Shown here in pieces: positions 1 to 17,964 of a DNA stretch of 32,000 nucleotides. A program made the position numbers and the translations under genes. The number at the start of each line of letters is the position of its first letter. Positions within the stretch are counted from its first letter, which is position 1. Location of the stretch: contig NZ_JAWCUA010000007.1 in NCBI RefSeq assembly GCF_032461525.1, positions 324,943 through 356,942 on the forward strand, given 5' to 3'. Source of the stretch: Psychrosphaera aquimarina. GTDB lineage: Bacteria > Pseudomonadota > Gammaproteobacteria > Enterobacterales > Alteromonadaceae. The notes under the pieces are model-generated. The model saw only the letters and a program-made list of their open reading frames with translations, was not told where the DNA came from and searched no databases.

Positions 1-1212
1 ATTTAACGGCATTTTATCAATCAATACTTTGCCTTTATAAGTATCCCCTATTATTTTTTCAACTTCATCAAAGTATACTTTTTTTAGATGTATTAACTCT
101 GTTTTATTTAATTTTGTTAGGCATTTAGGATAATCTTGATTTGTTATATTTTTAGCTGATTCTATTACTTTACTTATAGTTAAAGGTTCACTCAAAGTAA
201 CAATACTATTATGTGTATCTAACATCGTTTCTAAAAGTGTTGAGCCAGACCTAGGAAAACCAATCATAAATACCATTGATTGCTGAGTATATTCAGTCCT
301 CTTTAAGTCTTTTAAATAAATAGAGTCATATTGTTTAATATGATCAATTCGGTCTGTAAAGTCATGCTTTTCTAAATTGAACTTGGCTAATTTATTGAAG
401 AGTTCAAACGAAATATCATAGTTTCCTAATTTCTCATGAGCCTGTGCAAGTAATTTTATATGGAGTAATTGAGGCTGGAACCAATTCGGTATCGAATCTT
501 GCTTTAGTCCAGTTAATAGCTTTATAACCTCATTATAGTCTTTATTTGCTAGAGCTAGACTTGCAACAAGTATTTTAAACCAAGTATGAGCTTCATATTT
601 CTCATATAATTGTAGAATTACAGCTTCTGCTTCTTTTACTTCATTCAACTCTATAAATAAAAGTACGATGTATACAATGTAACCTTCTTGAAGTGTATTT
701 AGGTATAATGAGTACTCCTGTACATACTTTAATGCTTCAGATTTATTAAATGTTTTAACTGCTAAATTACACAATAACTGCTGTAATCGCGGACAAAAAC
801 CGTCTTGAGTTAAAAGTCTAGATGCCATCATTTCTAGTTGTTCATAATCTTGAACCTTCCAACAAATTTCACAATATGCTTTTAATATTGTCACTGAAAC
901 TATTGTGTCATTTGTTACCAGTGTTTCATCAATCAAATTTTTAGCTTGTTTGAGGTTATTTTGGGATAGATACTCTTGTAACATTAATCTTAATACTTGA
1001 GATTTATCTTCATCTGTTGTCGCATATTTTTTTGCATCTTGAAGTGAGAGTAAGGCCAATTTTTCTTTTCCTACGTTACTCAAACAGCAAGCTTTTAAAA
1101 TAAGTAATTTAAATCTTTCACTTTGATTTACTAATTTTACTTTATTAAGTAATTTTAATGCCTTGTTATACTTTTTATCGTTAAACAATTTTGTCGATGC
1201 GTCTAAGGTCAT
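1..1212 (-). CDS. TPR-like repeat / sulfotransferase-family protein; the 3' end runs off the window and the N-terminal 404 codons are present
   Basis: Absent from the ORF track because there is no stop in the window. My own minus-strand translation from the ATG at 1212-1210 stays open for all 404 codons to base 1. It begins MTLDASTKLFNDKKYNKALKLL, followed by about 300 aa of helical-repeat-like sequence. It then reads SMVFMIGFPRSGSTLLETMLDTHNSIVTLSEP ... GKVLIDKMPLN. The GFPRSGSTLL loop matches the PAPS-binding motif of bacterial sulfotransferase-family proteins, which are often fused to TPRs. Confidence 0.6.
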   Translation of the reverse strand, partial: MTLDASTKLFNDKKYNKALKLLNKVKLVNQSERFKLLILKACCLSNVGKEKLALLSLQDAKKYATTDEDKSQVLRLMLQEYLSQNNLKQAKNLIDETLVTNDTIVSVTILKAYCEICWKVQDYEQLEMMASRLLTQDGFCPRLQQLLCNLAVKTFNKSEALKYVQEYSLYLNTLQEGYIVYIVLLFIELNEVKEAEAVILQLYEKYEAHTWFKILVASLALANKDYNEVIKLLTGLKQDSIPNWFQPQLLHIKLLAQAHEKLGNYDISFELFNKLAKFNLEKHDFTDRIDHIKQYDSIYLKDLKRTEYTQQSMVFMIGFPRSGSTLLETMLDTHNSIVTLSEPLTISKVIESAKNITNQDYPKCLTKLNKTELIHLKKVYFDEVEKIIGDTYKGKVLIDKMPLN

Positions 1213-1261
1213 TTTTGGCTCACAATCTATTAGTAAGAGACTAAAGTCTTATATATTTTAA

Positions 1262-2119
1262 CTACTTGTTATATTGCACATAGTCAATACCACATGGGGC
1301 AACATCAGATAGCCTGTATGATTGCTCTATTTGTTTTTTAACAAAATAAAAATCCTTGTTCTCTGAAAATAAATGCCCCGCTAAAGGCAATAATTTAACC
1401 CCATCAATAATATGCCTTGCTTGCCCATGTATTTTAAGCAACACAGTATCTGTTGAAATAACTTTCACGACTCCAAAACTATTGTCTGAAAAAGTACAAA
1501 CCCAATCACCTTCTTTAATTTTCTGAGTTTTAGCAAATAACCAAGTTTGCTGCTTTTGATAAGAATGAGGTAGTTTACTTTCTTCTTTTTCAATGAGAGT
1601 TTGGATTACTTGTTTATAAGGGGTTCCTACTGAAAAATTAGTATTTAAAATACCGTGAGGTATTCCATTTGAGCCCTCTATATAAGGGAGATCATTTATA
1701 TCAGTCATCGCAGTCTCTTGATTAATGCCATCACTAGGATAATCTTCCAATTCAATATTACTAATTGAAAAATCGTCCAATTCATAGCCATTACCGTTAG
1801 CTAAGATATTGCTATTTTCGATAAAGGTAATAAATTTGTCAGCTTCCAACATTTCTTCAAAATACCCTATGAATTCACCTAATGAATTAAATGATTCATT
1901 TTGCTCAACAATCCAGTTTAAATATTTTTTAGTTTCTGAAGGTGATTCAGATTTTAATAAATTCATTTGAACACTGAGCTGAGTTAAACGTCCATAAAAA
2001 CGAAAAAACTGACCTTCTTGCTGTTCAAAGAAATTAGATAATAAACTACCTAAGAACTGTTCCTTAGTATTATATTTTGAAAGTGACTTGCAATCGTCAT
2101 TACAAGTGAACCTTGTCAT
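1262..2119 (-). CDS. hypothetical protein (285 aa), no family recognised; last gene of the fibre-locus operon
   Basis: Long ORF lying 20 nt downstream of the preceding ORF on the same strand. It has an acidic central region and no signal peptide if it starts at the ATG at 2119. Its frame stays open upstream to 2224. Confidence 0.5.
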   Translation of the reverse strand: MTRFTCNDDCKSLSKYNTKEQFLGSLLSNFFEQQEGQFFRFYGRLTQLSVQMNLLKSESPSETKKYLNWIVEQNESFNSLGEFIGYFEEMLEADKFITFIENSNILANGNGYELDDFSISNIELEDYPSDGINQETAMTDINDLPYIEGSNGIPHGILNTNFSVGTPYKQVIQTLIEKEESKLPHSYQKQQTWLFAKTQKIKEGDWVCTFSDNSFGVVKVISTDTVLLKIHGQARHIIDGVKLLPLAGHLFSENKDFYFVKKQIEQSYRLSDVAPCGIDYVQYNK

Positions 2120-2139
2120 AAACTGTGAAGATAATAAGT

Positions 2140-2391
2140 CTAAATCTGAATTACCATTAATTGGTGATAATTTAATATTTTTGAGCTCATAGTTCTCCCC
2201 CCAGTCCCTTCCACAACTTGTATGTTAGCGGTAATAGTTAAACCCCAATAGCTAAGTTCAATATTGCTATATCTGGCTAATTCTCTCCAAGCTGTTAGAT
2301 CTGCAGCATGACGATAACCAGCTTTGTCTAATTTTGTTTGGCACCCTAATAACAAAAGGAAGAATACTAAAACAATAGTTAACTTATACAA
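2140..2391 (-). CDS. small putative lipoprotein (83 aa)
   Basis: The N-terminus MYKLTIVLVFFLLLLGCQT has a lipobox (LLG-C). The ORF starts 1 nt after the stop of the upstream gene. The C-terminal ~20 aa look non-native and follow a G6 tract (see findings). Confidence 0.4.
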   Translation of the reverse strand: MYKLTIVLVFFLLLLGCQTKLDKAGYRHAADLTAWRELARYSNIELSYWGLTITANIQVVEGTGGRTMSSKILNYHQLMVIQI

Positions 2392-2392
2392 T

Positions 2393-2893
2393 TTAAGTCA
2401 CCTTATTATAATATATCAGTATGGCATTGTTTAATTCATATGACAGACTTCCGTTTAATCGGTCAGCAACAAATAATACCCCACCTAAATAAATGTCTAT
2501 AATCCCGGATGCGCCGCTATTAATAGTAACAAACTGGTTATATATCAGGTCTACCTGTTCAAGGTCTGATATAAATCGTCCCTTAGGCTGGTATGTTATA
2601 CCGTCATTTGCCACTTCTTCTCTTCTGTCCACTCTTATTTGATAATTTTCATTTGGGTTAACTGTCAATCTATAATGGCCAGGGGTTCCCACTGGGTTAC
2701 TATTACATAAACTACCAACACCAATTGCTGCTATATTTCCGGTATCCCAATCCATTTCACAACCACCTGCTACAGGTAGTAATTGACCAAAATTTATCTC
2801 ATCAATTTGCACCATAGTTGCTGCATAAGTTAAAGGTGAAAGAATCAATAGAAACCAGCTAGTAACAAAAAACGACTTGTCAAAAATACGCAT
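2393..2893 (-). CDS. secreted short fibre-subunit paralog (DUF4402 / spore-coat-U-like), candidate minor or tip subunit
   Basis: Signal peptide ...LSPLTYA|AT. It shares three elements with the 208- and 250-aa subunits: INFGQL near the N-terminus; a Cys pair (GGCEMDW, SLCNSN); and the tail IYLGGVLFVADRLNGSLSYELNNAILIYYN. It lies 1 nt downstream of the usher-like gene. Confidence 0.55.
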   Translation of the reverse strand: MRIFDKSFFVTSWFLLILSPLTYAATMVQIDEINFGQLLPVAGGCEMDWDTGNIAAIGVGSLCNSNPVGTPGHYRLTVNPNENYQIRVDRREEVANDGITYQPKGRFISDLEQVDLIYNQFVTINSGASGIIDIYLGGVLFVADRLNGSLSYELNNAILIYYNKVT

Positions 2894-2894
2894 A

Positions 2895-5800
2895 TTATTT
2901 ACTCCAAACGACTTCTAGGTAATTGTCAGTGTCTACTATAAAACCATCAACATTAAGCTTCCGTAGAAACAAGTTAGCTTCTTCTTTAGTAAAAAATGTT
3001 CGGCTAACAACACAATACAACGATTGTTGGCCAACCGTTTTAGTTGCAACATATAATTCATCCACTGTTTCTATGCCTTCAGCTAATTGTTTTGCATTTT
3101 CTAAATCATTCGCAGCAAGAAACTGTACTTTCCAACCTTGCAATATGTATTCCTCTGCGACTTGAGTTTTTACACGATAACCTAAACTTGAATAGTTAGC
3201 CTCACCAACCGCATTTGCTTCAATTTCTGATTCAAAAGGGCCTACCTCGAACCTATATACAATATTGCCTTCTGCGTTCATAGCACGATGTATCTTGTTA
3301 TTCACAATACCTTGGGATTTGATGTATCTTTTTAAACTTAGCAATGTTTTAAAATTCCCTACAGAGAGAAGGAAGTTTCTGGACTGTGACATTCCATCTA
3401 TTTGATTTATTGCTCCTTTGTCCACACCATAATTTAAAAACTCACGGCGCTTTTGAGCATTTAAAATGCGATTCCGAAGCGTTATTCTATTTTCCTGAGT
3501 AACTTGTTGCCTAACGCGCCTAAATTCACCTTCAGCCATTTGATCATAAGAATGCGGGGCGTTAAATCCACCTTTGGGAGGAAGGTGTATTAATTTTTCA
3601 TTACTATTAATTACTTGCTCATAGTTAGTATCATCTAACTTAATATTCATTAATGAAGATTGCACCAGTGTCGTGCTTTTCTCTCTTGTTAATTCAATGT
3701 TAGGTAAAAGTATAAATCCGCCAGTTAACGGAGCTTCAAAGGTAAATCCATAGAACTCCGTGTTATAGCCTTTATCTAACAACCAGTCCTTTTTTATATA
3801 AACCTGATAATTACCTGGTAATAAGTTCGAAAAGTGAACATAACCATCCATATCTGAATCAACAAAATACTCATCTCCAGTCGTTAAGTTTTTAGCTATA
3901 ATCGGCACAGCCGAAAGTATCTGGTTATCACCTTCAGTTATTAATGTAACAAAGAACTCAATTTCTATACTTAAATAAAATGGTAAGTTTATTACTTGCT
4001 GAGATCCTGGATGGCTATAAACCAAATATTTTTGGTTTAAGGTATCAGTTCCTGAAGTCCAACTAGAGCCTAATGCAGTAACCCCCGTTCTTGCCCCAAA
4101 CAATCTGGCTCTTCCGTTTTTATTAGTTGTGATATTTTCCCACCCTGGTCCTCCAGAAAAGGTAACACCTTGTAAATTATGATCTAATGCGTCCGGAATA
4201 CCATTTAGTCTTCGGTCTAGGTATGCATGAACATCAAGTGTCCCTTCACTCCTCATAGAGTTTCTAGAGATAGCTAACCTATCATTGTAATAGTCATAAC
4301 CAAAATTGAATGAGATACCAGCTCTAAGGTTCCATTGTTCATTTGAATTAACGGTAGTTCCAAAAGTAAAGAAGTGAGTTGGTTGTTTCCAAGCTAAGTT
4401 GTAACCAAACTGCCATATGTTTTGTTCACCAAAAGATCGACCAGATAAAAGTATATTTTGGTTCGTCGACTCAGTTCTTACGTTATAGTTTATTGATGCT
4501 GAAATTAAATCTCCATTAAACTCATCAATAGCGTTTACATCATATGGAATATCCATTTTGAAACGTAGATTTGAATCTAACTTTGACATGAAACTTATAT
4601 TGCCAAGACTAACAGTTCCTCCTTCATCAACCTTATTTACAAGAGTGTTCGATATATTAAAACCTTGACCTGCATAATTGATTCTATGTGTGAAACTGTT
4701 CAAAGCTTCATTGTCATACTCATCATAATTAAAGCTAAAATAATTTGTAATTTTATTAATTCTAAAATTATATGTTGCGTTTAAATTATATTCTGAAGCG
4801 ACTTCATCGCCGTTATTCTTTGAATTGTATTGTAAAATAAAGCTATCATTTGGTAAAAATGATGTTGCCACGCTAGAACGTTGCTCGACAATGTCTTCAT
4901 TTATACTGAGATTAGAAGTTAAGAACCACCCTGGCAGTGAAACTTGGTTTAATAAACTATAAATTACTCTCTGATTATCTTCATTATGGATATTGCTAAT
5001 GTTTGCTTTAGCACCAATCATCCAATTATCCAAAATACCATAATTGAAATCACCAGCGATAGCATCTAAGTTGAATTCATCTAGATTGACATTAAGAAGA
5101 GAACTATCGTACTCGAATAGACTAAGGTTAAAAGATTTATCCCCCTCAGCCAAAGCTGTTCTCCTTGCATCAATTTTTTCTATTAGCTCTTCACGTTCAC
5201 CATAAGGACCAAACATTACAATTTTAAATGTATTATTGCCAAAGAAAAGTTCAACATTGTTAATATCTATTACTCCATCGTCTGGAACAATAATTGATTT
5301 TAAAAATACGCCATTATGAAATATATCAGCTTCCCAACCTGGTCGGCCAATTTTCTCAAAACTCGTCTTAAAATTTTCATGGTAGTTTTTCGATGAATTT
5401 CTAGATAAAGATATACCTAGACCTCGACTTTCTTCGTTTGAAAGAGAAGCTGTTCGGCTATAAATATCACCAAAGCTATATTGGTCCCAGATTCCAAGAA
5501 ACTTTTCACCTTGATCCGACGGATAACGACTAAGTCGAGTATGCGTTAACAGCTCGTCATCTCTTTTCGTTAACGTAACCAATGTTGAGTGGTATGCAAA
5601 ATCTGATACCGACTGTAAACTACCATTTAGTGTTTCTGTTTGACCAGTATTTGTATAGTCAATAACCGCAGTTCCAGTGGGTACTGATGCCATTCTGTAA
5701 GTATCTTTAACAGTAATTACCCTTTGGTTTTGTAAATTGCTTTGCTCATTGTTTCTATCCACCAAATATTTATTAAATGACCTCTGCTTTTTATTTAATC

Positions 5801-5969
5801 TTATTTTTTTATACGGAAACTCTTCGGTATGACCGCTTAACTCAAGAGTAAGTTTACGTGTATCCGATATAGCTTTTGTTCCAAGTGACTGCTCTAATGT
5901 AGTTAAGGGTACATAAGTATAAACTCCATCATTAAACCAAAACTCTGTATTTTCAGATTGTATTTCCAC
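2895..5969 (-). CDS. usher-like outer-membrane protein, main body (beta-barrel region + CarboxypepD_reg-like domain + two SPOR-like repeats); lacks its own signal peptide and ATG
   Basis: A 1024-codon ORF that begins only at a GTG, although its frame is open back to 5995. Residues ~150-660 show a long run of beta-strand-like segments rich in N/Y/F/G. Residues ~665-760 (VPIIAKNLTTGDEYFVDSDMDGYVHFSNLLPGNYQVYI) resemble a carboxypeptidase-regulatory beta-sandwich. Residues ~865-1015 form two SPOR-like repeats (..LLSVGNF..YRFEVGPFESEIEANAV.. and ..WKVQFLAANDLENAKQLA..YCVVSRTFFTKEEANLFLRKL..). Its position after two chaperone genes matches an usher. Confidence 0.55.
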   Translation of the reverse strand: MEIQSENTEFWFNDGVYTYVPLTTLEQSLGTKAISDTRKLTLELSGHTEEFPYKKIRLNKKQRSFNKYLVDRNNEQSNLQNQRVITVKDTYRMASVPTGTAVIDYTNTGQTETLNGSLQSVSDFAYHSTLVTLTKRDDELLTHTRLSRYPSDQGEKFLGIWDQYSFGDIYSRTASLSNEESRGLGISLSRNSSKNYHENFKTSFEKIGRPGWEADIFHNGVFLKSIIVPDDGVIDINNVELFFGNNTFKIVMFGPYGEREELIEKIDARRTALAEGDKSFNLSLFEYDSSLLNVNLDEFNLDAIAGDFNYGILDNWMIGAKANISNIHNEDNQRVIYSLLNQVSLPGWFLTSNLSINEDIVEQRSSVATSFLPNDSFILQYNSKNNGDEVASEYNLNATYNFRINKITNYFSFNYDEYDNEALNSFTHRINYAGQGFNISNTLVNKVDEGGTVSLGNISFMSKLDSNLRFKMDIPYDVNAIDEFNGDLISASINYNVRTESTNQNILLSGRSFGEQNIWQFGYNLAWKQPTHFFTFGTTVNSNEQWNLRAGISFNFGYDYYNDRLAISRNSMRSEGTLDVHAYLDRRLNGIPDALDHNLQGVTFSGGPGWENITTNKNGRARLFGARTGVTALGSSWTSGTDTLNQKYLVYSHPGSQQVINLPFYLSIEIEFFVTLITEGDNQILSAVPIIAKNLTTGDEYFVDSDMDGYVHFSNLLPGNYQVYIKKDWLLDKGYNTEFYGFTFEAPLTGGFILLPNIELTREKSTTLVQSSLMNIKLDDTNYEQVINSNEKLIHLPPKGGFNAPHSYDQMAEGEFRRVRQQVTQENRITLRNRILNAQKRREFLNYGVDKGAINQIDGMSQSRNFLLSVGNFKTLLSLKRYIKSQGIVNNKIHRAMNAEGNIVYRFEVGPFESEIEANAVGEANYSSLGYRVKTQVAEEYILQGWKVQFLAANDLENAKQLAEGIETVDELYVATKTVGQQSLYCVVSRTFFTKEEANLFLRKLNVDGFIVDTDNYLEVVWSK

Positions 5970-6268
5970 CCCCTCAGAAAAAAGAATTTCTTTTTTTGTT
6001 CAAAGACTTCAATCTCTAAATTATTTTCCACAAATCGATACTTTACCCTTAAACTATCAAGTATTGGTGTAATAGCTATATACGTTTTGTCATCAATTAC
6101 GTAAGCGTCAATTGCACGAGCAATATTAAGCCCTTCATCTTTTACATCAAATAAATAAAACTCACCGAGCTCCAATTTAATAACATCTAACTTAGTAAGT
6201 GTTACGCCCATTAATTGTGTGCTAAACAAACAGAGTCCAAATATTAAAAGTTTTATAATTGAGTGCAT
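5903..6268 (-). CDS. N-terminal fragment of the usher-like protein (signal peptide plus N-terminal domain), separated from the main body by a frame change at an A7 tract
   Basis: It starts MHSIIKLLIFGLCLFSTQLMG (signal peptide) and begins 4 nt after the chaperone stop. After ...LEIEVFEQKK the frame runs into junk and stops at 5903. The -1 frame continues as EILFSEGVEIQSENTEFWF... into the 1024-aa ORF. Confidence 0.6.
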   Translation of the reverse strand: MHSIIKLLIFGLCLFSTQLMGVTLTKLDVIKLELGEFYLFDVKDEGLNIARAIDAYVIDDKTYIAITPILDSLRVKYRFVENNLEIEVFEQKKKFFFLRGWKYNLKIQSFGLMMEFILMYP

Positions 6269-6272
6269 AAGA

Positions 6273-7025
6273 TTAACCGCCTACTGGCGTCTCAGACTTT
6301 ATTTGTCCTGACTCCTTAAGCTCATTAAACATTATTTTTAAAGGTGAATCTGTGTCAGATTTTAGCTCAAGCTCAAGCTGTTTAGGCTTTTCTCCCGGGT
6401 AGTGAGATACCTTTTTCAATTCTTTTATTATACCTCCTGATTCCTGATATCCGATTGTCACATCTCCACTAACAGAGCGTTCTCCGGTAACTAACATCTC
6501 AGCAAAAACCTTAGTACCTACTTTTCTCACATTTGAAAAAGTTACTTGAGAATCAAGTTTTTTTGTTCTAACAATTAATGGGATGTTTTGTACCAATGTT
6601 GGTTTTATTTCCACTTTTTTAGTACTTTCTTCAGCTTGTCCTTTACAGATAACTGCAATCGCTCCGATATACTCTCCATCTTCAACACCTGGTTTACGTC
6701 TGTATATAGCTTTAAATTCTTGTACTTGCCTAAAATCGAGATTAAATCTACTTGGCGCAATTCTGACCATATTAACAGGACTAGGATTATTAATGCCGTC
6801 GCCTTCTGTTAAAGTTAATTTTCCATTCTTCACATCCAAGTTTCTAACTTCTATTTTACAAGTTAAAGGTTCATCATCTGAATTAATAACACTCATACTT
6901 GTACTCTGGACATCTGGAGATAAAAATAAACGTGTCGAAGTAACTGTAACAGATTCGACTGATACACTAATAAAACAAAATAGGAGCCCAAAACCAAGCT
7001 TTATAATATATTGCTTTGTATTCAT
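6273..7025 (-). CDS. PapD-like periplasmic fibre chaperone, paralog 2
   Basis: Signal peptide, then the first strand VTSTRLFLSPDVQSTSMSVINSDDEPLTCKI with a conserved Arg. A later segment, VRIAPSRFNLDFRQVQEFKAIY, resembles the chaperone motif f-v-x-PP-x-f-x-l-x-p-g-x-x-q-x-x-R. The size (about 250 aa) and two-domain layout fit, and it lies between another chaperone and the usher. Confidence 0.5.
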   Translation of the reverse strand: MNTKQYIIKLGFGLLFCFISVSVESVTVTSTRLFLSPDVQSTSMSVINSDDEPLTCKIEVRNLDVKNGKLTLTEGDGINNPSPVNMVRIAPSRFNLDFRQVQEFKAIYRRKPGVEDGEYIGAIAVICKGQAEESTKKVEIKPTLVQNIPLIVRTKKLDSQVTFSNVRKVGTKVFAEMLVTGERSVSGDVTIGYQESGGIIKELKKVSHYPGEKPKQLELELKSDTDSPLKIMFNELKESGQIKSETPVGG

Positions 7026-7037
7026 AAGAACGCTTCC

Positions 7038-7784
7038 TTAGATAGATAATTTAAAGGTTTTTTTATACTTATAGGATCCAGTTTCAACAAACTCAATCCC
7101 TATACCTTGCTCTGAAATGTATTTCGTTTGAATAGAAATTGCTAGTTTCTTCATATCCGAATACAGCACAGTGTTCTTTTTCAACTTTTCTAAACGCTTT
7201 CCATTATTATCAACTAAATATACATCACCGTATACTGACCGATTACCGCTATGGAGTAGGTTAATAGAGAACTCGTCTTGATCACGTTTCACAATTTCTA
7301 GATCAAGATCGACTGTATATTTTTTTGTATCACCAGTTCTCATAACTAAAGGTACAGCTAAATCTAATAATGTCGCAAATCGTCCCTGTCCATCTTCTAC
7401 ACTTGTTTGTTTACGACAGGAAAAAACGGCATAAGTCCTAACCTCATTACTCGAGTCGTTAGGAATTCTTCTATAAGAAAAAGAAATATATCTTGTTGAA
7501 TTTGGTTCAATAACGAAGCTCTTCGGTGAATATTTTACTCTAGCTAGAGCAGCTTTCGATAACTCGGCTTGTTCTTCAACTGTTAATTTTTTGACACCAC
7601 CAATACCGTCATAAAGCCTATTGTTAAATTTAATTTCACAAATTTCGGGAACTACGGACTTGTTCCTAATTGGAAACTTTTTATTGCGGTTATCTTCGTC
7701 AAGGTATATTCGAAAAGCTCCCAATGAAGCCGCCCCCGCATTAGATACCCAAACAAATAGAAGTAAAAAAAGTATCAGTTTCAT
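7038..7784 (-). CDS. PapD-like periplasmic fibre chaperone, paralog 1
   Basis: Signal peptide MKLILFLLLFVWVSNAGA, then LGAFRIYLDEDNRNKKFPIRNKS (first-strand Arg). A later segment reads VKYSPKSFVIEPNSTRYISFSYR. A GAGG ribosome-binding site lies 4 nt upstream of the ATG. Confidence 0.5.
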   Translation of the reverse strand: MKLILFLLLFVWVSNAGAASLGAFRIYLDEDNRNKKFPIRNKSVVPEICEIKFNNRLYDGIGGVKKLTVEEQAELSKAALARVKYSPKSFVIEPNSTRYISFSYRRIPNDSSNEVRTYAVFSCRKQTSVEDGQGRFATLLDLAVPLVMRTGDTKKYTVDLDLEIVKRDQDEFSINLLHSGNRSVYGDVYLVDNNGKRLEKLKKNTVLYSDMKKLAISIQTKYISEQGIGIEFVETGSYKYKKTFKLSI

Positions 7785-7855
7785 AAACCCTCAGTTAATT
7801 AAAATGTTGCTAATCGAATGGTTTAAAGCAAGTAAAGTACCAACTTTAAAAGACT

Positions 7856-7884
7856 AAATATAAATTTAAAGTGGAGCCGTAGCA
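7856..7884 (-). promoter_or_regulatory. possible sigma-70 promoter for the chaperone/usher genes (TTGCTA-17 nt-TATATT)
   Basis: On the minus strand TTGCTA lies at 7884-7879 and TATATT at 7861-7856, separated by a 17-nt spacer. This is about 70 nt upstream of the chaperone ATG. The region is AT-rich, so a chance match is quite possible. Confidence 0.25.
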
Positions 7885-8081
7885 ATTAAACGGTAGAAGA
7901 AAGAAGTTTGGTATAACGGTTACTAATAAGCTTTGAAACATCTTAATTTCAAATACTAAAAATACTTACATTTACTGTATTGTCAGATGAAAAAGTAAGA
8001 TATTGGGTACTAAAAAAATAATAAATTTAGAAGATGGTTGTAAAGTAGAAATTCTAATGATATTTATCTTTCAATAAATAC

Positions 8082-8113
8082 AAAAAAACCAGCAATATTA
8101 AATTGCTGGTTTT
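8082..8113 (-). terminator. intrinsic terminator after the major-subunit genes
   Basis: Stem CCAGCAAT (8089-8096) pairs with ATTGCTGG (8102-8109) around a 5-nt loop. The A7 on the plus strand (8082-8088) gives a U7 tail on the minus-strand transcript. It sits about 50 nt downstream of the 208-aa subunit stop. Confidence 0.75.
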
Positions 8114-8165
8114 CAGTAATTGTAAATTACTTTTTGTTAATTGGTACCGTTTAATAAATTAATAT

Positions 8166-8792
8166 TTATTGATAGATTACATTAACATCATAGTCTGCAG
8201 TGTACGAACCATCTGCAGTTAAGGCTACTTGGTTTACAATCGTACCACCAACGATAATACGTGTTTGACCTGCTGGTAAGTTCGCAGTTAAGTCTGGTGA
8301 TGCCTGTACAGGTTGTCCGTTACCTAGTCCTTCAGTAATTTGATCAAATGTAGCTGTATTTGAAGCTGTGAAATCCGCAACGTATGCATCGGGGGTAAAC
8401 GCAATATCGTTTGCAGCACCAGCTATAACTTCAACTGTGATACCTGCATCAGCATAAGCAGAAATACCAATAATGCCTACCTGACCATTTGCATCTGGAT
8501 CACCACAACCAGTACCTAAATCACCTGAAGCTGTGTAACCTGTAGGTGTACCTACACCTAACTGACCAGCTGACAGCGTTTCAGTACCAGCACCTACTGG
8601 GTCCATAACACAGGAGGCTGCTGGAGTTAGTGCCAATACAGGCCCAAAGTCTAGAGCCCTAATTGGTGTCAATGTAATTTCAGCTAACGTATCAAAAGTT
8701 AAAGTTGCTGTAAAATCTGTTGCAGCTGCATTTGCCGACAAACCAGCCAAAACTAATGGCAAACTTTTCTTAATCATATTTAAAGTTTTCAT
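8166..8792 (-). CDS. secreted acidic fibre subunit (DUF4402 / spore-coat-U-like), 208 aa
   Basis: Signal peptide ...GLSANAAA|TD. The mature N-terminus FTATLTFDTLAEITLT has alternating hydrophobic residues. It also has LDFGPV, a Cys pair (ASCVMDP, GTGCGDP) and the tail GQTRIIVGGTIVNQVALTADGSYTADYDVNVIYQ. The mature part contains almost no Lys or Arg. A GGAGA ribosome-binding site is present. Confidence 0.6.
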   Translation of the reverse strand: MKTLNMIKKSLPLVLAGLSANAAATDFTATLTFDTLAEITLTPIRALDFGPVLALTPAASCVMDPVGAGTETLSAGQLGVGTPTGYTASGDLGTGCGDPDANGQVGIIGISAYADAGITVEVIAGAANDIAFTPDAYVADFTASNTATFDQITEGLGNGQPVQASPDLTANLPAGQTRIIVGGTIVNQVALTADGSYTADYDVNVIYQ

Positions 8793-8806
8793 CGTATTCT
8801 CCTACC

Positions 8807-9559
8807 TTATTCGTAAGTTACTGTTACAACAACAGAATCACTAACCGCACCTGCTGTAATTGGAGTTCCATCAAATACTAGGACTCCACCAAGTAATATG
8901 TGAGTTTGGCCAGTATTATCTTCAAGCACCGAACCGCCAGTATCACCAGCACCTACTGATAAACCTACACCGGTAATCGATGTAACACCATCAAAGTCTC
9001 TACATACGTCTACGGCAGCAGTTCCATCAAAATCAACTACACAAGTTTGATCTCCAGCTGTATAAGTCCAACCAGTACCAACAACATCAGGGATATCTAC
9101 AGAAACTGTTGCACCTGCTACACCATCAACTTCTAAGACCATATGTGATCCGACTGTGGTACCCGTTGCGGCATCACCTAGACAGCCTGTTGAGTCATCA
9201 GCAATTTCACCAGGTACATGAGCGGCAGCTGCTCCATCAGTTAATGGTGTACCAGCTGGTATTACTAAGTCAGCTGCATCACTGGTATCATTACCATCGA
9301 TATTAACTAGTAAATCAGTCTCAAAAGCATTTGTCGCTGCAACAAGAATACAAGTATCGTTATTGTTTGGATTCAACTTAATTTTATCACCAAATGATAG
9401 GCTAGAATCTCCCAGTGATGCATGTTGTGTAATCGTAACATCAGATACCGCCTGAGCAGTAATTGTATATGTATCCGCACTAGCAACAAAGGCATTACCC
9501 AAGCCTAATATTAAGGCACTTGCTACTAGCGTCTTTTTCATTTTAAATTTTGGTTGCAT
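8807..9559 (-). CDS. secreted acidic fibre subunit (DUF4402 / spore-coat-U-like), 250 aa
   Basis: A strong GGAGG ribosome-binding site lies 7 nt upstream of the ATG. Signal peptide ...AFVASA|DT. It has the strand YTITAQAVSDVTIT, LSFGDK, four Cys residues and the tail GQTHILLGGVLVFDGTPITAGAVSDSVVVTVTYE. It is a paralog of the 208-aa and 166-aa proteins. Confidence 0.6.
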   Translation of the reverse strand: MQPKFKMKKTLVASALILGLGNAFVASADTYTITAQAVSDVTITQHASLGDSSLSFGDKIKLNPNNNDTCILVAATNAFETDLLVNIDGNDTSDAADLVIPAGTPLTDGAAAAHVPGEIADDSTGCLGDAATGTTVGSHMVLEVDGVAGATVSVDIPDVVGTGWTYTAGDQTCVVDFDGTAAVDVCRDFDGVTSITGVGLSVGAGDTGGSVLEDNTGQTHILLGGVLVFDGTPITAGAVSDSVVVTVTYE

Positions 9560-9734
9560 AACAACCCTCCTACATGATTTATTTTAGTAATGACCTTGAA
9601 AGAAAAATTACTATTAATATTTCTAACATGTTTAATGTATCGACTCGTTAAATAAAAGCTTTAGATCTTTTTCCCCTTTTTTTGAAATTTAATTTTTATC
9701 TTTAATAACAATAAGATAACCATATCATTTATAC

Positions 9735-9760
9735 AAAAAAGACAGCTAATATCAGCTGCC
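9735..9760 (-). terminator. weak intrinsic terminator after the lipoprotein pair
   Basis: Short hairpin GACAGCT / AGCTGCC (9741-9760; 5 contiguous bp plus 1). The A6 on the plus strand (9735-9740) gives U6 on the minus-strand transcript. It lies directly downstream of the stop at 9768. Confidence 0.35.
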
Positions 9761-9767
9761 TTTTTAT

Positions 9768-10502
9768 CTACTGTGCGGTATAAACTGGAATACCGTCGTT
9801 GTTATTGCTTTTCATAATGTGATTACTAATGGCACTAGGGATAAATCCTTGTGCACTGGCAACAATGGCTTTTGATTCCATACCTACGATTCTAGCGTTG
9901 ACCATAATACCTTGTTGATGTCTCACCAAAGTGCCGGTTAACACATAACGAATTGGAATGTCTGGGGAAAGATCTATGTAATCTTTACTCAGTACAAAAT
10001 CACCACCAGGCGTAACCCTAATGTAATCTGTTGCTTTAAAGTCAACAACGGGGATCCCTAATTTATGAACCTCATGCATAAAACCTTCAGATATTTGATT
10101 GCCTAATAGAGAAGCACTTTGGTAGTTACTGTCTAAAAAGACAAAACTAGACACGGCCATTGGCGTTGAGGCATTAACGTATTGCAGGTTAGTTAAAAGA
10201 TCCTGCATGATCCCTCTAACATAATGGTTAACGTTTTTTGTATTAGCGGCTTGTCCGTTGTGACTGCCCATTTGTCCGTTAGAACTTGAGCTCCACTTAT
10301 CTTGGTATTGGTTTTGAAAGTTAGCGCTATTTTCAAGAGGATCAGCGGATCTTAATAAGCTGATCTTATTTGTTTCGGGTTGACTAGCACCACTATTAAT
10401 TGATGCTTCCACTTGTTGATCTTCGAAGTCTGTCCATTTATCTAATGACGCACAGCCATTTAGTAACGACAGTGCAATACTACCTATAATTAATTTTTTC
10501 AT
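9768..10502 (-). CDS. lipoprotein, FlgO / TolB-N-terminal-like family (paralog B)
   Basis: Lipobox LSLLNGC|AS, followed by a low-complexity Q/N/S linker. The C-terminal domain reads ...MAVSSFVFLDSNYQSASLLGNQISEGFMHEVHKLGIPVVDF...IRYVLTGTLVRHQQGIMVNARIVGMESKAIVASAQGFI. This is the pattern I recall for FlgO-family outer-membrane lipoproteins. Confidence 0.45.
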   Translation of the reverse strand: MKKLIIGSIALSLLNGCASLDKWTDFEDQQVEASINSGASQPETNKISLLRSADPLENSANFQNQYQDKWSSSSNGQMGSHNGQAANTKNVNHYVRGIMQDLLTNLQYVNASTPMAVSSFVFLDSNYQSASLLGNQISEGFMHEVHKLGIPVVDFKATDYIRVTPGGDFVLSKDYIDLSPDIPIRYVLTGTLVRHQQGIMVNARIVGMESKAIVASAQGFIPSAISNHIMKSNNNDGIPVYTAQ

Positions 10503-10510
10503 AATACCCC

Positions 10511-11125
10511 CTAGTATTCCCCACGGTAAATTTGGTTATCGTTTAGCTGAACTTTTGAATGACTCCACATACTATTGGTAGCTATATAGTCAGTAGCCGC
10601 TGCAACTAAGCTTTTATCTTCAATTCGGATTAATCGTGCATTCACCATAAGTGAGTTTTGTTGAATGCTATAAGTGCCTGTTAACATATACTCAGCATTG
10701 ATTTTTTGATCTTGCATTACTTGCGTTCTAGATAACATGACGTCGCTATTTGGTGTCATCATGATTGATGGTAACGCTCTATGTTCAATTACTTTAAGGC
10801 CCGCTTGAGTAGATAAAGTGATAAAACTCTCTTGAATTTGTAAGCCTATTCTTTGCAGATTTGAATTTTTCTCGTGTTCTAAATTAGACACTGGCAAAAA
10901 TGTGCCGACTACCACCGGACTGTGAACATCCAAGCCGATCGACGTATCAAATAGCTGTCTCGCCATTCTTTCTACGCTTTGATGTAACGTTCCTTCTAAC
11001 GTTTCAGGTTCATAACCTTTACGCTCTAGAACCTCAATCTGTTTCTTTTGAAACGACGCTACTTCATCAGAAATCGTTGTACAACCAGCCAACATAGTAA
11101 CTAGTATTATGAATAAGTATTTCAT
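10511..11125 (-). CDS. lipoprotein, FlgO / TolB-N-terminal-like family (paralog A)
   Basis: Lipobox TMLAGC|TT. The sequence ...VVVGTFLPVSNLEHEKNSNLQRIGLQIQESFITLSTQAGLKVIEH...AEYMLTGTYSIQQNSLMVNARLIRIEDKSLVAAATDYI is collinear with the neighbouring 244-aa protein. The ORF-track start at 11131 is a GTG, so the ATG at 11125 (MKYLF...) is preferred. Confidence 0.45.
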   Translation of the reverse strand: MKYLFIILVTMLAGCTTISDEVASFQKKQIEVLERKGYEPETLEGTLHQSVERMARQLFDTSIGLDVHSPVVVGTFLPVSNLEHEKNSNLQRIGLQIQESFITLSTQAGLKVIEHRALPSIMMTPNSDVMLSRTQVMQDQKINAEYMLTGTYSIQQNSLMVNARLIRIEDKSLVAAATDYIATNSMWSHSKVQLNDNQIYRGEY

Positions 11126-11163
11126 AATCACTCATCTATTAATTAAATAATCTGATTTGAATT

Positions 11164-11379: not shown

Positions 11380-14300
11380 ATGCTTGATCAGATTTTAGCT
11401 TATTTCTCCATCTCCCCAGACAGCATTCTTATTTATGGTACTCACAACAAAGCAATGGTTGCTTTGTCCTTGTTTATCGCCATTTTGTCATCGTTTATGG
11501 GGTTGCAACTGGCGACTCAAGAAGCCAAAGACATTTCTATCGTACGTAGGAACATTACCTTATTGGGTGGTAGTGTTGCATTAGGTGGTGGTATTTGGTC
11601 TATGCATTTTATTGGTATGTTAGCGTTTGAGTTATGTACCGTGGTCGATTATAACGTTTCATTAACTTTATTCTCAATGTTGCCAGGCATAGCCGCATCG
11701 TTTGTTGCATTAAATCATATACAAAAACACACAAATGGTATCAAACCTCTTATATGGGGAGGCGTGTTGGTTGGTTCGGGAATAGGTGCTATGCACTATA
11801 CCGGCATGGCTTCAATGCAAATGGCGCCTTTGCTTCGTTATGATTTATCTATTTTTACCTTATCTATAATAGTGGCCGTTACCTTTGCTATGTTGTCATT
11901 ATGGATCCGTACTGGTTTGTTAAAAATCTGGGGACAAAAAGGTTGGCAAGCTAATTTAGTTGCTAGTGTCGTAATGGGCTTTGCTATTGCGGGTATGCAT
12001 TACACTGGCATGGCTGCTGCTCGTTTTGTTAAACCACCTGGATTAGAACTTGGCGACCAAACCAGTGAAATGTCCTTTTATTTAGCGCTAGTGGTTTCCA
12101 TTACTACTATCGTGATCATCACACTTATTTTATGTATTAATGTGATCTACAAATACCGAGATATATCCCGCCATGCCAGTTTAAGTGAGCATAGATTACG
12201 CTCTATGATGGATACTGCGGTGGATGCCATTATTAGTTTTGACCGCAAAGGGATTATAGAGAATGTAAACCGAGCCACTGAAACTTTGCTAGGTTGGAAT
12301 TCTCATGAGATTGTTGGCAAAAATGTAAAGTTATTGATGCCGCCAGAATCTTACGACACGCACGATAATAATTTACGAGAGTTTATTACTACAGGCCAAT
12401 CAAGTGTTATAGGTGGAAGCCGAGAGGTCAAAGCTCAACATAAAGATGGCACCTTAATTAATATTAGGTTAGCTATTGGCCATGTAGATCTTGAAAGAGA
12501 TAGTTTTTTTGTTGCCTTTATGTCCGACATACGTCAGCGCATTGAAATGGAACAAGCCCTTCGCGAAAATGAAGCTAAATTCAGATCGTTAATTAGTAAT
12601 ATTCCAGGCATTGCCTACCGTTGTTTAAACGAAAAAAGCTGGCCTTTATTGTTTATCAGTGATGCGGTTGAAGAAATTACAGGTTATCCGGCTAAGGATT
12701 TTTTACCGCCTAATAACAAACGAAATTTCTCGGATTTATTCCACCCTGACGATGTCGATTTGATTTCTTCGAACCAAATAGTGGATCAAATGTTCAATCT
12801 AGAATATCGAATTATCACTAAAAATGGTGATATTCGTTGGATGATGGAATTTGGCAATCATATTACCGACGATGAAACCGGAGAGATTTGGTTAGACGGT
12901 TTCATTATGGATATCACTGAGCGTCAAAATATGGAACAACAGCTTAGAGAAGCAAAAGAAATAGCAGAAGAAGCAGCAGAAGCGCGCGCCGCGTTTATGG
13001 CAAATATGAGCCATGAAATTAGAACGCCAATGAATGCCATTATTGGTTTTAGTGACATTTTATTAGAAACAGAACTAAAACCCGACCAGCTTAAACACTT
13101 GAATGTTATTAACAATGCGTCTAAATCATTATTACATTTATTAAACGATATATTAGACAGTGCAAAACTCGACAAAGGTAAGTTAGAGCTTGAGTTAAGA
13201 CAATTCTCATTAATAGAAGAAGTCGATGCGGTCATCTCTACATTATGGTTACAAGCCAGAAATAAAGGTTTAGAGCTAAATGCCGACATTTCTCGCAAAC
13301 TAAACGGCTTTTATTTAGGTAGCCCTGAACGTATACGACAAGTATTAACTAATTTAATTGGTAATGCAGTTAAATTTACCGAATCAGGCCGAGTGACGGT
13401 TTCGGTATACCCTGTTGGTGATAATAATGTAAGGTTCGAAATAGAAGACACTGGTATTGGCATGGACGAGCAACAGCTTAAATCTGTATTTGAAGCCTTT
13501 ACCCAAGCCGATGCATCCATGAGTCGACGTTTTGGCGGAACGGGCTTAGGGACCACCATTAGTAAACAACTTGTTGAATTAATGGGTGGGGAAATAAATG
13601 CACAGAGCGAACTTAATGTTGGTACTAAGTTTTACTTTGAACTTCCGTTACCACAAGTCAAACACAAAGTTGAAAAACAGCAAGTCACTCAGGTTCAGTT
13701 ACCGCCATTAAAAATATTAGTAGTGGATGATATCCAACAAAATATAGACTTATTAACCTTGTTACTCGAACGAGATGGCCATACCGTTGTGACCGCCCGA
13801 GACGGAAAACAAGCATTAGTACGTATGTCTGATTGTAAAGAAATCCAATTAGTATTAATGGATATTCAAATGCCAGTCTTAGATGGCTTAAATGCTACTA
13901 AACAAAGACGTGAATACGAAAAACAACATCAACTCCCTCAAATGCCGATAATCGCGTTAACCGCAAGTGTATTATTAGACGACAAATTAGCGGCTGAACA
14001 ATCAGGCATGCAAGGGTTTGCAAATAAACCGGTGGATTACACTTTATTAAGTAATGAAATTGCCCGAGTGTTAGACATTGACGTCGAACTGTCTCCTGTT
14101 ACGGTTGATAATAACAAGGCCGATTTATTAATGGATGAGACTAAAGGTGAAGCACTGTGGGGAAGTTTAGATGCTTATTATCAGCAAATATTAAGCTTTA
14201 TAAATAGTCAAAGTGTTGCAATTACGGATCTAAAACAAATAATAGTTTCTGAAAGCTGGGACAAAGTAACGGCCGTAGCCCATTCACTAAAAGGTGTGAG

Positions 14301-14694
14301 TGGTAATTTAGCCATAGTAAAATTACAACGTCTTTTTGCGCAACTTGAATCTGTCGTCAGCAGCCACCCAGAACAATGTATTTCTGTATATGAAACTATT
14401 GATGATGTTTTTACCGAGTTAACCGACAAAGTAAACACGTGGAAAAATAACTATCAAAATGTGGCAACATTTTCTGAAGTTGATCAAGATGCGTTAATCA
14501 GCTTACTCAATCAGCTACACACAAAGGCGCAAGAAAATGAAGCTGAAGAAACTGATCTCGCTGAACTGTTAACATACAGTGAATCCGAATACCGTAGCGA
14601 TATAAATAAAATTTATAACGCATTAAATGATTTTGAATTTGAATATGCTCTGGAGCATATAGTAGCGCTTAAACAACGCCTAGAAAGTAAGTGA
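11380..14694 (+). CDS. hybrid sensor histidine kinase: MHYT membrane sensor - PAS - PAS - HisKA/HATPase - receiver - HPt
   Basis: The multi-TM N-terminus carries three MHYT motifs (MHFIGM, MHYTGM, MHYTGM), followed by two PAS-like segments. The kinase core shows the H-box [16 protein letters not shown] and ATPase boxes [16 protein letters not shown] and GGTGLGT. The receiver reads ILVVDD...[11 protein letters not shown] and the HPt domain reads [12 protein letters not shown]. Confidence 0.9.
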
Positions 14695-14704
14695 AGGTAA
14701 AGTA

Positions 14705-15691
14705 ATGGAAAACAAACAAGCAACCATTTTAATTGTTGATGATGAACCGGCTAACTTACGCGTTTTAAAACAGATTTTACAACAAGATTATCGATTGATT
14801 TTTGCTAAAGGCGGTCAAGAAGCATTACGTTTAGCACACGATAAAAAACCAAATCTAATACTATTAGATATTATGATGCCTGATATAACTGGGTTAGAAG
14901 TCTGTAAACAACTGAAAGCCGATCCCGTCACCACTAAAATACCCGTTATTTTTGTGACGGCATTAAACGATCATGATGATGAAGCTCAAGGATTAGAACT
15001 TGGTGCAGTCGATTACATAACCAAACCAGTATCAGCCCCTGTAGTTAAAGCTCGTGTCGCGACACATTTATCACTTGTGCAAGCCGACGAATTAAGACGA
15101 ACTCGTCTACAAGTCATACAGCGCTTAGGGCATGCATCGGAATACAAAGATAATGAAACAGGCATGCACGTAATGCGCATGAGCCATTATTCTCAGGTTC
15201 TGGCGCTTGCTTTTGGATTCTCAGAACAACGGGCTGACGATTTACTTCATGCGGCACCTATGCATGATTTAGGAAAAATAGGCATTCCAGATAGCATTAT
15301 GCTAAAACCAGGCAAGTTAACTAACGAAGAGTTTGATGTGATGAAAACGCATCCCGTTATTGGCGCTCATATCTTAGGGGACGATGACTCAGACTTGATC
15401 AGTTTAGCCAAAGTAGTCGCCCTAACTCACCATGAAAAATGGGATGGTACAGGCTACCCAAATGGTCTAGCCGGTAAAGATATACCAGTTGAAGGTCGTA
15501 TCGTTGCAATCGCAGATGTATTTGATGCCTTAACGAGTGTTCGACCATATAAAGATGCTTGGTCAATTGAAAGGGCTGTAGAGTTAATACAAAATGAAAG
15601 TGGAAAACACTTTGATCCGGAACTGGTTAGTCTGTTTGTTCAAGAACTAGATAAAATGCTAGAAATTAAACAACGCTGGAAAGATGAATAA
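14705..15691 (+). CDS. response regulator with HD-GYP domain (RpfG-type c-di-GMP phosphodiesterase)
   Basis: Receiver domain ILIVDDEPANL...LLDIMMPDITG...ITKP. HD-GYP motifs HDLGKIGIP and HHEKWDGTGYPNGL. The gene starts 10 nt after the kinase stop, behind a GAAGG ribosome-binding site. Confidence 0.9.
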   Translation: MENKQATILIVDDEPANLRVLKQILQQDYRLIFAKGGQEALRLAHDKKPNLILLDIMMPDITGLEVCKQLKADPVTTKIPVIFVTALNDHDDEAQGLELGAVDYITKPVSAPVVKARVATHLSLVQADELRRTRLQVIQRLGHASEYKDNETGMHVMRMSHYSQVLALAFGFSEQRADDLLHAAPMHDLGKIGIPDSIMLKPGKLTNEEFDVMKTHPVIGAHILGDDDSDLISLAKVVALTHHEKWDGTGYPNGLAGKDIPVEGRIVAIADVFDALTSVRPYKDAWSIERAVELIQNESGKHFDPELVSLFVQELDKMLEIKQRWKDE

Positions 15692-17094: not shown

Positions 17095-17163
17095 ATTATG
17101 TTCCAATCTCAAAAACAATTGGCTAAATATAGTACAAGTACCCAATAAAGAAACGGTGCATTA

Positions 17164-17962: not shown

Positions 17963-17964
17963 TG

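Follow-up and report, generated by a model that had tools for sequence, protein, structure and literature searches.

Results

Gene order at the locus and its conservation

This work concerns a putative chaperone-usher (CU)-like locus carried on the minus strand of a 32,000-nucleotide (nt) stretch of the Psychrosphaera aquimarina genome (the window, to the whole of which all positions refer). A survey of the minus-strand open reading frames (ORFs) places there, in order of transcription, genes for two secreted subunits (A and B), a hairpin, genes for two PapD-like chaperones, for a large usher-like outer-membrane protein, for a third subunit (C) and for a lipoprotein; two genes for FlgO-domain lipoproteins precede them (Table 1). 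All the minus-strand ORFs listed in an earlier reading of the same DNA, made from the sequence alone (the sequence-only reading), were found in place, and the gaps of 1-20 nt that it had described from 7784 down to 1262 were borne out. Two of the genes are each broken by a frameshift, which is discussed below; for these, sizes refer to the repaired reading frame.

Table 1. Features of the locus, listed in the direction of transcription.
Feature	Position	Strand	Size (amino acids, aa)	Description
FlgO-domain lipoprotein	10511..11131	(-)	206	lipobox LAGC; Pfam FlgO E 1.1e-29, 103.3 bits
FlgO-domain lipoprotein	9768..10502	(-)	244	lipobox LNGC; Pfam FlgO E 2.5e-43, 147.5 bits
Subunit A	8807..9559	(-)	250	secreted, T/G/A/D-rich; N-terminal extension; ends ...VTYE
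Subunit B	8166..8792	(-)	208	divergent DUF4402-type; N-terminal extension; ends ...VIYQ
Terminator-like hairpin	8084..8114	(-)		13-bp stem and T-run, between subunit B and chaperone 1
Chaperone 1	7038..7784	(-)	248	signal peptide; PapD-like; keeps Pro87...Arg116
Chaperone 2	6273..7025	(-)	250	signal peptide; paralog; strand-F-type Arg replaced by Ile
Usher-like outer-membrane protein gene	2895..6268	(-)	1124 if repaired	AlphaFold2 model of ortholog, Foldseek, Pfam SPOR
Usher signal peptide and N-terminal domain	5835-6268	(-)		mapped from ortholog model, approximate
Frameshift site 1	5991..5997	(-)		A7 run (T7 on plus strand), splits usher gene
Usher barrel strands 1-6	5394-5678	(-)		mapped from ortholog model, approximate
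Usher plug-like sandwich	5166-5372	(-)		mapped from ortholog model, approximate
Usher barrel strands 7-24	4293-5138	(-)		mapped from ortholog model, approximate
Usher C-terminal sandwich domains	3678-4280	(-)		mapped from ortholog model, approximate
Usher disordered linker	3378-3635	(-)		mapped from ortholog model, approximate
Two SPOR-like domains of usher	2901-3374	(-)		mapped from ortholog model, approximate
Subunit C	2393..2893	(-)	166	DUF4402-like paralog; lacks the ~15-residue N-terminal extension; 4-residue C-terminal extension
Terminal lipoprotein gene	1262..2391	(-)	376 if repaired	lipobox LLGC; last operon gene in clade
Frameshift site 2	2197..2202	(-)		G6 run (C6 on plus strand), splits terminal lipoprotein gene

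When one genome per species was queried for the large protein, nine related loci were obtained (L001-L009), from Psychrosphaera, Paraglaciecola, Colwellia, Neptunicella and one gammaproteobacterial metagenome-assembled genome (MAG). As far as the contigs extend, all have the same order: one to three FlgO-like genes, subunit A, subunit B, chaperone 1, chaperone 2, usher, subunit C and a lipoprotein of about 370 aa, except that L009 (a Neptunicella MAG) has a single chaperone gene (9137-9910). Usher identities across these syntenic genomes range from 47% down to 28%. Because the full gene order recurs in nine independent genomes, the organization of the locus goes beyond chance; the conservation in Alteromonadales that the sequence-only reading had proposed to look for is thus present. 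The succession subunit, chaperone, usher, minor subunit is found in the window and in the nine loci, and its core in the plasmid operons described below.

The large protein has the predicted fold of an usher

Structure prediction was carried out on an intact ortholog, P0002 (1120 aa), which is 70% identical to the repaired window protein; the AlphaFold2 model was built from a 25-sequence alignment and its strands were counted from the DSSP listing. The model comprises an N-terminal domain (residues 21-145), six long strands (199-294), a beta-sandwich insert (302-370), eighteen further strands (380-655), C-terminal sandwich domains (660-860), a disordered linker (875-960) and two beta-alpha-beta-beta-alpha-beta domains (962-1031 and 1042-1119). 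This is the architecture of ushers, six strands, a plug and eighteen strands, lengthened by two SPOR domains.

Compared with the PDB by Foldseek, the ortholog model matched FimD or PapC at all of ranks 1-17 (E 1e-23 to 8e-10, 10-12% identity). Alignments to full-length usher chains spanned about 750-950 columns, with E from 1e-23 to 8e-15; those to chains limited to the translocation domain spanned about 500 columns and reached down to E 8e-10. Other barrels, namely TonB-dependent receptors, LptD and porins, appeared only at E >= 1e-5. With moderate confidence, the large protein is predicted to be an usher by fold, not by sequence, and the large multi-domain usher proposed in the sequence-only reading agrees with the modelled N-terminal domain, plug-like sandwich, strands and C-terminal domains.

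At the sequence level, the Pfam search of the window protein gave SPOR at the C-terminus (E 8e-8), with weak matches to CarboxypepD_reg/SdrD_B and immunoglobulin (Ig) families. That these are its only recognizable domains, and that it lacks a match to the Pfam Usher profile, would be compatible with an outer-membrane barrel of another kind (a transporter, or an LptD- or TonB receptor-like protein) lying next to unrelated secreted proteins, as would the distant relative P0026, which has no chaperone or subunit genes beside it. Two observations make such a barrel highly improbable: the Foldseek gap of about 18 orders of magnitude between ushers and TonB receptors, LptD or porins, in alignments that also include the N-terminal domain, the plug and the C-terminal domains, and the fact that PapD_N-like chaperones and DUF4402 proteins strictly accompany the large protein at nine genome and six plasmid loci in alpha-, beta- and gammaproteobacteria.

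The two chaperones are probably PapD-like

Chaperones 1 and 2 are paralogs of 18-21% identity. Homolog searches gave only four to five relatives for each query, and the family alignments of the chaperones and of the subunits were built from the neighbouring genes of the related loci. Four of the 18 chaperone family members match PapD_N (PF00345); the chaperone 1 ortholog of L008 is above the cut-off (26 bits versus 23, E 9.7e-6). Chaperone 2 matches an NCBIfam fimbria/pilus chaperone family (E 8e-4), and the UniRef name at this protein is 'P pilus assembly protein, chaperone PapD'. Using hhalign, the family profile was aligned with the annotated chaperones of DUF4402 operons over 246 columns (99.95%, E 1e-37), and three of six of the latter match PapD_N, with a best E of 2.7e-8. 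In profile searches of the chaperone, subunit and usher families against the PDB, no pilus protein was significant (the best was PapD at E 0.27), and the hhalign comparison of the chaperone family with a single FimC sequence was not significant. These profile comparisons show the window chaperones to be homologous to those of DUF4402 operons and suggest that they are PapD-like. The duplicated chaperones of the sequence-only reading therefore hold as a paralogous pair whose family is related to proteins that pass or approach PapD_N; in the PapD_N search that it had called for, the window proteins were themselves below the cut-off or unmatched, and it is the L008 ortholog that passes.

The strand-D1 proline is the sole residue invariant throughout the chaperones of the CU superfamily; Pro59 and Arg89 of CsuC are a hallmark of the non-classical chaperones, in which Arg89 anchors the subunit C-terminal carboxylate and an Arg/Tyr pair is present in domain 2, and archaic chaperones lack the classical-type Arg of the first strand (PMC4654587). 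In our alignment Pro87 (chaperone 1 numbering) is kept in 18/18 sequences and would, from the motif spacing, be equivalent to CsuC Pro59. Arg116, 29 residues further on, is kept in all nine chaperones of type 1 and lost from eight of the nine of type 2; the Pro-to-Arg spacing in chaperone 1 is the same as that of CsuC Pro59/Arg89, which suggests an equivalence at the motif level. A later Arg (R182) is present in 16 of the 18 sequences and a Tyr (Y208) in 17. A classical-type first-strand Arg is found in 17/18; the chaperone motif x-T-x-R-I-Y-L aligns there with the G-A-T-R-V-I-Y of FimC, at low confidence.

The lone chaperone of L009 retains the Arg, and the subunit C ortholog, with the C-terminal extension described below, is still encoded there; subunit C therefore does not strictly need a second chaperone.

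The three subunits are divergent DUF4402 proteins

A full-length alignment of 27 subunit sequences confirmed the motifs noted in the sequence-only reading: x-F-G, a Cys pair, G-x-x-x-I-x-x-G-G and a terminal V-x-Y are common to the three paralogs. C61, G175 and G183 are invariant, and F49, C96 and G103 nearly so. About 15 more residues precede the F-G motif in subunits A and B than in subunit C, and A and B stop one residue past the last conserved aromatic, flush with the last strand. The 4-residue C-terminal extension of subunit C is present in all ten orthologs, and in each of the nine loci the subunit C ortholog comes after the usher gene. Subunit B is probably the major subunit. Lacking an N-terminal extension to donate, and with its gene placed behind that of the usher, subunit C is by the logic of CU systems a candidate for the first-in, tip subunit.

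DUF4402 (PF14352) is matched by 5/27 subunits of the clade (best E 3e-4), and subunit B is named 'DUF4402 domain-containing protein' in UniRef. The subunit family was compared by hhalign with bona fide DUF4402 proteins, a set in which eight of nine members score DUF4402, up to E 1.8e-30; the two aligned over 161 columns (98.4%, E 7e-15). Judged from these profiles, the three subunits are divergent DUF4402 proteins, as had been proposed, homologous as a family to the bona fide members and individually below the Pfam threshold. Searched against the PDB, the subunit profile found no significant pilus protein.

The resemblance to spore coat protein U (SCPU) and archaic pilins that the sequence-only reading had also put forward found no support. 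SCPU (PF05229) was absent from the Pfam scans of the window subunits at E <= 1, of the 27 clade subunits at E <= 0.1 and of the DUF4402 set at E <= 0.01, and membership of the SCPU/archaic group was set aside as unsupported.

The usher-like family and related operons

To estimate the size of the family, its profile was run in an exhaustive HMMER search and the matches were counted as clusters at 50% identity: 2033 cluster representatives were retrieved at E <= 1e-3, of which 317 reach E <= 1e-30. Most members have 830-1000 aa and no SPOR tail, and in ten distant members the CarboxypepD_reg/SdrD_B sandwich is the sole Pfam feature. One distant relative (P0026; L011, 2289-5249), 21% identical and of high GC content, lies alone beside a patatin gene on a metagenome contig of 6.2 kb that contains no chaperone or DUF4402 gene.

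A tblastn search of annotated plasmids, with one distant member as query, located six related operons (examples are Polaromonas sp. JS666 plasmid 2, BPRO_RS26565-26580; Polaromonas pE5SP1; Sphingopyxis indica pMC4; Novosphingobium ES2-1 p2; and Pseudoalteromonas xiamenensis). The two Polaromonas operons and those of Sphingopyxis and Novosphingobium are annotated as encoding one or more DUF4402 proteins, a 'molecular chaperone' or 'fimbria/pilus periplasmic chaperone', and a 'carboxypeptidase-regulatory-like domain' or hypothetical protein. In the Pseudoalteromonas xiamenensis operon the DUF4402 proteins are annotated, the gene at the chaperone position is hypothetical, and SPOR-domain proteins are encoded on both flanks. 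In Pseudoalteromonas sp. Bsw20308 the subunit and chaperone positions are occupied by hypothetical genes, and the annotation of the large protein reads SdrD B-like. Automated annotation had already hinted at which genes encode chaperones and DUF4402 proteins.

Small hypothetical genes of 135-206 aa without Pfam match were observed between or after the DUF4402 genes in the distant operons L012 (3060-3467), L015 (2484-2918) and L016 (1760-2380); they may encode unrecognized minor subunits. Neither DUF4402 nor PF14352 was mentioned in the literature searched.

Relative to these operons, sequence comparison indicates that the SPOR-fused usher, the doubled chaperone with one copy devoid of the Arg, the subunit without N-terminal extension, and the terminal and FlgO-like lipoproteins as conserved accessories are traits specific to the clade of the window.

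Two frameshifts in the P. aquimarina locus

The protein of about 1120 aa described in the sequence-only reading is not a single ORF in the window. It is broken at the A7 run into overlapping pieces in different frames, 5903-6268 (121 aa, with the signal peptide and N-terminus) and 2895-5969 (1024 aa, GTG start); adding one A at 5991-5997 restores a 1124-aa protein. The NCBI public record is the truncated form of 1024 aa, named 'SPOR domain-containing protein'. Similarly, the small lipoprotein and the 285-aa orphan that had been listed as separate genes are fragments of one gene (2140-2391, 83 aa, and 1262-2119, 285 aa), and one additional G at 2197-2202 yields a lipoprotein of 376 aa. This gene is unbroken in all nine related loci, where it encodes 354-450 aa. 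Both frameshifts are single-base deletions within homopolymers. Programmed frameshifting was rejected because the orthologous genes stay in frame and conservation does not extend to the tracts.

The locus as sequenced may therefore be inactive, and the two frameshifts reflect either mis-sequencing at both sites or a system that is switched off. If truly inactive here, the same type of system would be a decaying pseudogene cluster, or one turned OFF by slipped-strand phase switching at the A7 and G6 runs. Two independent one-base homopolymer deletions in two genes of the same operon point that way, as do the public protein, which is the shortened form, and the remaining coding sequence of the window (about 20 kb), which contains long intact ORFs only; phase variation, moreover, classically targets surface fibres. 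We nevertheless regard true inactivity as rather unlikely. The enrichment is not significant, runs of at least 6 nt being hit in 2/18 cases in the locus versus 0/34 elsewhere (p ~0.115), the tracts are short for efficient slippage, the orthologs of the broken genes are intact, and single-base homopolymer deletion is the typical error of assemblies made from long reads only. A further locus resembles sequencing error: in the long-contig assembly of Paraglaciecola aquimarina KCTC 32108 (L007, 7767-13323) the same genes are shattered, with subunit B and chaperone 1 in two pieces each and the usher in at least five, which suggests long-read homopolymer errors or decay.

Hairpin, SPOR domains and lipoproteins

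The strong terminator hairpin of the sequence-only reading was recovered after subunit B. A comparable hairpin with a T-tail occupies the same position in 7/9 loci; the hairpin sequences are unrelated, so it is the feature that is conserved and not its sequence. It is probably an attenuator between highly expressed subunit genes and the assembly genes.

The Pfam SPOR domain (PF05036) lies at residues 945-1010 of the 1024-aa ORF and scores 32.9 bits for a cut-off of 21 bits; the second SPOR-like domain is predicted from the secondary structure of the ortholog model. SPOR proteins also occur in Pseudoalteromonas xiamenensis: its DUF4402 operon (L017, 1410-8533, on a plasmid or chromid) comprises a SPOR-less usher, two flanking SPOR-domain proteins and a TPR protein. 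From its gene content, this arrangement appears to be the unfused counterpart of the SPOR-fused usher and independently ties SPOR domains to DUF4402-type machinery. In the searched literature that mentions usher, SPOR domain and pilus together, no title refers to a fusion of this kind.

FlgO is otherwise known from the flagellar H-ring of Vibrio. Both lipoproteins encoded upstream of subunit A are far above the FlgO (PF17680) gathering threshold of 22.6 bits. Paralogous FlgO-like genes, one to three in number, precede the operon in every locus with enough flanking sequence, and another one to three are often found on the opposite strand directly past it. In L001, L002 and L005-L009, the immediate upstream neighbour of the first subunit gene is an ortholog of 9768-10502. 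This conserved adjacency, within one bacterial order only, suggests that the FlgO-like lipoproteins are functionally tied to the locus. Intact orthologs of the terminal lipoprotein have no Pfam match.

Regions flanking the locus

Downstream of the operon, window positions 1-1261 (about 1.26 kb, GC 29-31%) hold one marginal ORF of 40 aa and no other of at least 40 aa; related loci have an opposite-strand FlgO-like lipoprotein gene at this position, which is not present within the span of the window. A second region, 17146-17964 (about 820 bp), has no ORF of at least 40 aa save the edge bases of one of 49 aa, and is flanked by a 139-aa ORF and by a 268-aa membrane-protein ORF that looks lgt-like by eye. 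Rfam and tRNA scans of the whole window, including 17146-17964, gave no matches.

On the plus strand, positions 11380-15691 encode two proteins, in divergent orientation from the FlgO-like genes: a hybrid sensor kinase with the domains MHYT-PAS-PAS-HisKA-HATPase-REC-Hpt and, after it, a response regulator of the REC-HD-GYP type. The pair is absent from the 2.9-4.4 kb upstream of the locus in L001 and L002 and is probably not a dedicated regulator.

Discussion

A probable chaperone-usher-like system built on DUF4402 subunits

We consider it likely that the product of this locus is a chaperone-usher-like system for secretion and assembly. It would belong to an uncharacterized and widespread type, made of one or more DUF4402 subunits, a PapD-like periplasmic chaperone and a cryptic usher. 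The evidence consists of the usher fold (at moderate confidence), the homology of chaperones and subunits to components of DUF4402 operons, synteny, and the SPOR and FlgO domains. The core of the sequence-only reading, a divergent CU-type locus on DUF4402-like subunits with doubled chaperones and two upstream subunits, is in this way supported by fold, profile homology and gene order.

Several observations weigh against this proposal. The usher model is of moderate confidence (predicted local distance difference test score, pLDDT, 67; predicted template modelling score, pTM, 0.42) and was made on the ortholog rather than on the window protein. The Pfam Usher search that the sequence-only reading had suggested left the window protein unmatched (PF00577, E <= 1), and ten distant relatives were equally unmatched at E <= 0.01. 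hhalign against a single FimD sequence was not significant (probability <3%), and PDB profile searches, even with a 43-sequence profile, found no usher, the C-terminal sandwich domain alone being matched. Window chaperone 2 matches PapD_N at E 0.008 and 16.6 bits, below the 23-bit cut-off, over positions 2-121 of 126, and window chaperone 1 has no PapD_N match in Pfam. Subunit B reaches DUF4402 at E 0.017 and 16.2 bits, under the 25.2-bit threshold; subunits A and C have no Pfam match to this family, and the AlphaFold2 model of subunit B, from a 7-sequence alignment, was unusable (pLDDT 35). Two essential genes are broken by frameshifts in the window sequence, and the literature searched contained no experimental datum for any DUF4402 system.

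Proposed mechanism

The usher fold and the component homologies, extrapolated from the CU paradigm, lead us to propose the following mechanism, in which fibre formation, donor-strand exchange, assembly order and the role of the SPOR domains are inferred by analogy. Subunits A, B and C would be exported by Sec and captured in the periplasm by the putatively Ig-like chaperones, which would anchor the subunit C-terminus and hand the subunits over to the N-terminal domain of the usher. With the plug displaced, the subunits would be polymerized through the 24-strand barrel by donor-strand exchange, the N-terminal extension of each completing the fold of its neighbour. Subunit C, encoded after the usher and devoid of this extension, would enter first and sit at the tip, and the shaft would be built of subunits A and/or B. 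The hairpin after subunit B could hold subunit expression above that of the machinery. The SPOR tail and flexible linker may tether the periplasmic face of the usher to peptidoglycan, perhaps at septa or poles, where the glycan would be denuded.

Alternatively, the CU-like machinery might make no fibre, the DUF4402 proteins being exported singly or as a component of a cell-surface coat or matrix, in the manner of the spore-coat-protein-U systems of Myxococcus, rather than polymerized into a pilus. The subunit fold and its donor-strand groove are predicted by analogy; subunits A and B carry long low-complexity T/G/A/D loops; and no fibre was reported for any DUF4402 system in the literature searched. 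Set against this, subunits A and B have the extra N-terminal segment of about 15 residues and the flush end expected of strand donors and acceptors, the usher architecture is retained in full, N-terminal and C-terminal domains included, and several paralogous subunits are present, one encoded after the usher in the fashion of pilus operons. Export without polymerization therefore appears improbable, and a fibre-forming system is preferred.

Implications

Among the adhesive fibres of bacteria, CU pili are understood best, and they are targets for drugs and vaccines; they are classified by usher sequence families. The usher-fold family described here, with its 2033 clusters, escapes the Usher profile and is annotated by its C-terminal sandwich domain alone; therefore, CU-type systems are likely undercounted in environmental bacteria. 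DUF4402 gains a concrete working hypothesis, a role as a pilin. SPOR domains are fused to the usher here and encoded separately in a related operon; this predicts that pilus assembly is physically coupled to the cell wall, a coupling that, judging by titles, is new for ushers. The system may be a main attachment organelle of marine particle-associated bacteria (Psychrosphaera, Paraglaciecola, Colwellia).

These elements also leave room for a broader picture, which we offer tentatively as a real possibility. DUF4402 systems could form a fourth deep CU lineage beside the classical, alternative and archaic ones, with an usher diverged beyond sequence recognition and a wide distribution in environmental Proteobacteria (>2000 usher clusters at 50% identity). 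The Alteromonadales version would be a peptidoglycan-anchored machine, with a SPOR-fused usher, a tip subunit of its own, a specialized second chaperone that lacks the Arg for carboxylate anchoring, and accessory lipoproteins, some of them FlgO-like; it would build a previously unseen marine adhesive fibre, possibly at septa or poles.

Comparison with known systems

The closest systems are the operons that encode DUF4402 proteins, a chaperone and a carboxypeptidase-regulatory-like outer-membrane protein. All three core components are homologous to those of the window (the usher by HMMER and tblastn, the chaperone and subunits by hhalign), and their genes share the core order of subunit(s), chaperone and usher. 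However, these operons have a single chaperone and a SPOR-less usher of 830-1000 aa, lack the post-usher subunit, the terminal lipoprotein and the FlgO-like genes, and encode subunits that score strongly on Pfam DUF4402, whereas those of the window are under threshold. The Pseudoalteromonas xiamenensis operon is intermediate, its SPOR proteins being encoded by separate flanking genes.

Type 1 (FimC/FimD) and P (PapD/PapC) pili of Escherichia coli provide the best fold matches, which cover the N-terminal domain, the plugged barrel and the C-terminal domains, and share the operon logic of major subunit, terminator, chaperone, usher and minor subunit. They differ in that structural alignment identity is 10-12% and sequence homology undetectable, and in that their subunits are Fimbrial (PF00419) proteins and not DUF4402 proteins; the window usher, in addition, bears SPOR domains.

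Archaic ushers such as CsuD are recognized by PF00577, in contrast to the large protein of the window, and the window subunits lack the SCPU match. Archaic (sigma) CU pili, represented by Csu of Acinetobacter baumannii and CupE of Pseudomonas aeruginosa (PMC4654587, PMC10104325, PMC9452303), nevertheless resemble the present system in their spread beyond enterics, their small single-domain subunits and the minor subunit encoded after the usher. Judged by motif, chaperone 1 has an invariant Pro and, 29 residues on, an Arg, like CsuC Pro59/Arg89, together with the later Arg...Tyr pair; unlike archaic chaperones, the window chaperone has the classical-type first-strand Arg, and chaperone 2 lacks the putative equivalent of Arg89.

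The likeness to FlgO of the Vibrio flagellar H-ring concerns the two upstream lipoproteins, both of which contain a full FlgO domain (E 2.5e-43 and 1e-29); in the window, however, these multi-copy lipoproteins adjoin a pilus-type operon and not a flagellar cluster. The sequence-only reading knew of no characterized system with this composition, and the present comparison likewise matched none: at the sequence level, the locus appears as a divergent member of the unstudied DUF4402-type operons, outside the Pfam families Usher, SCPU and Fimbrial.

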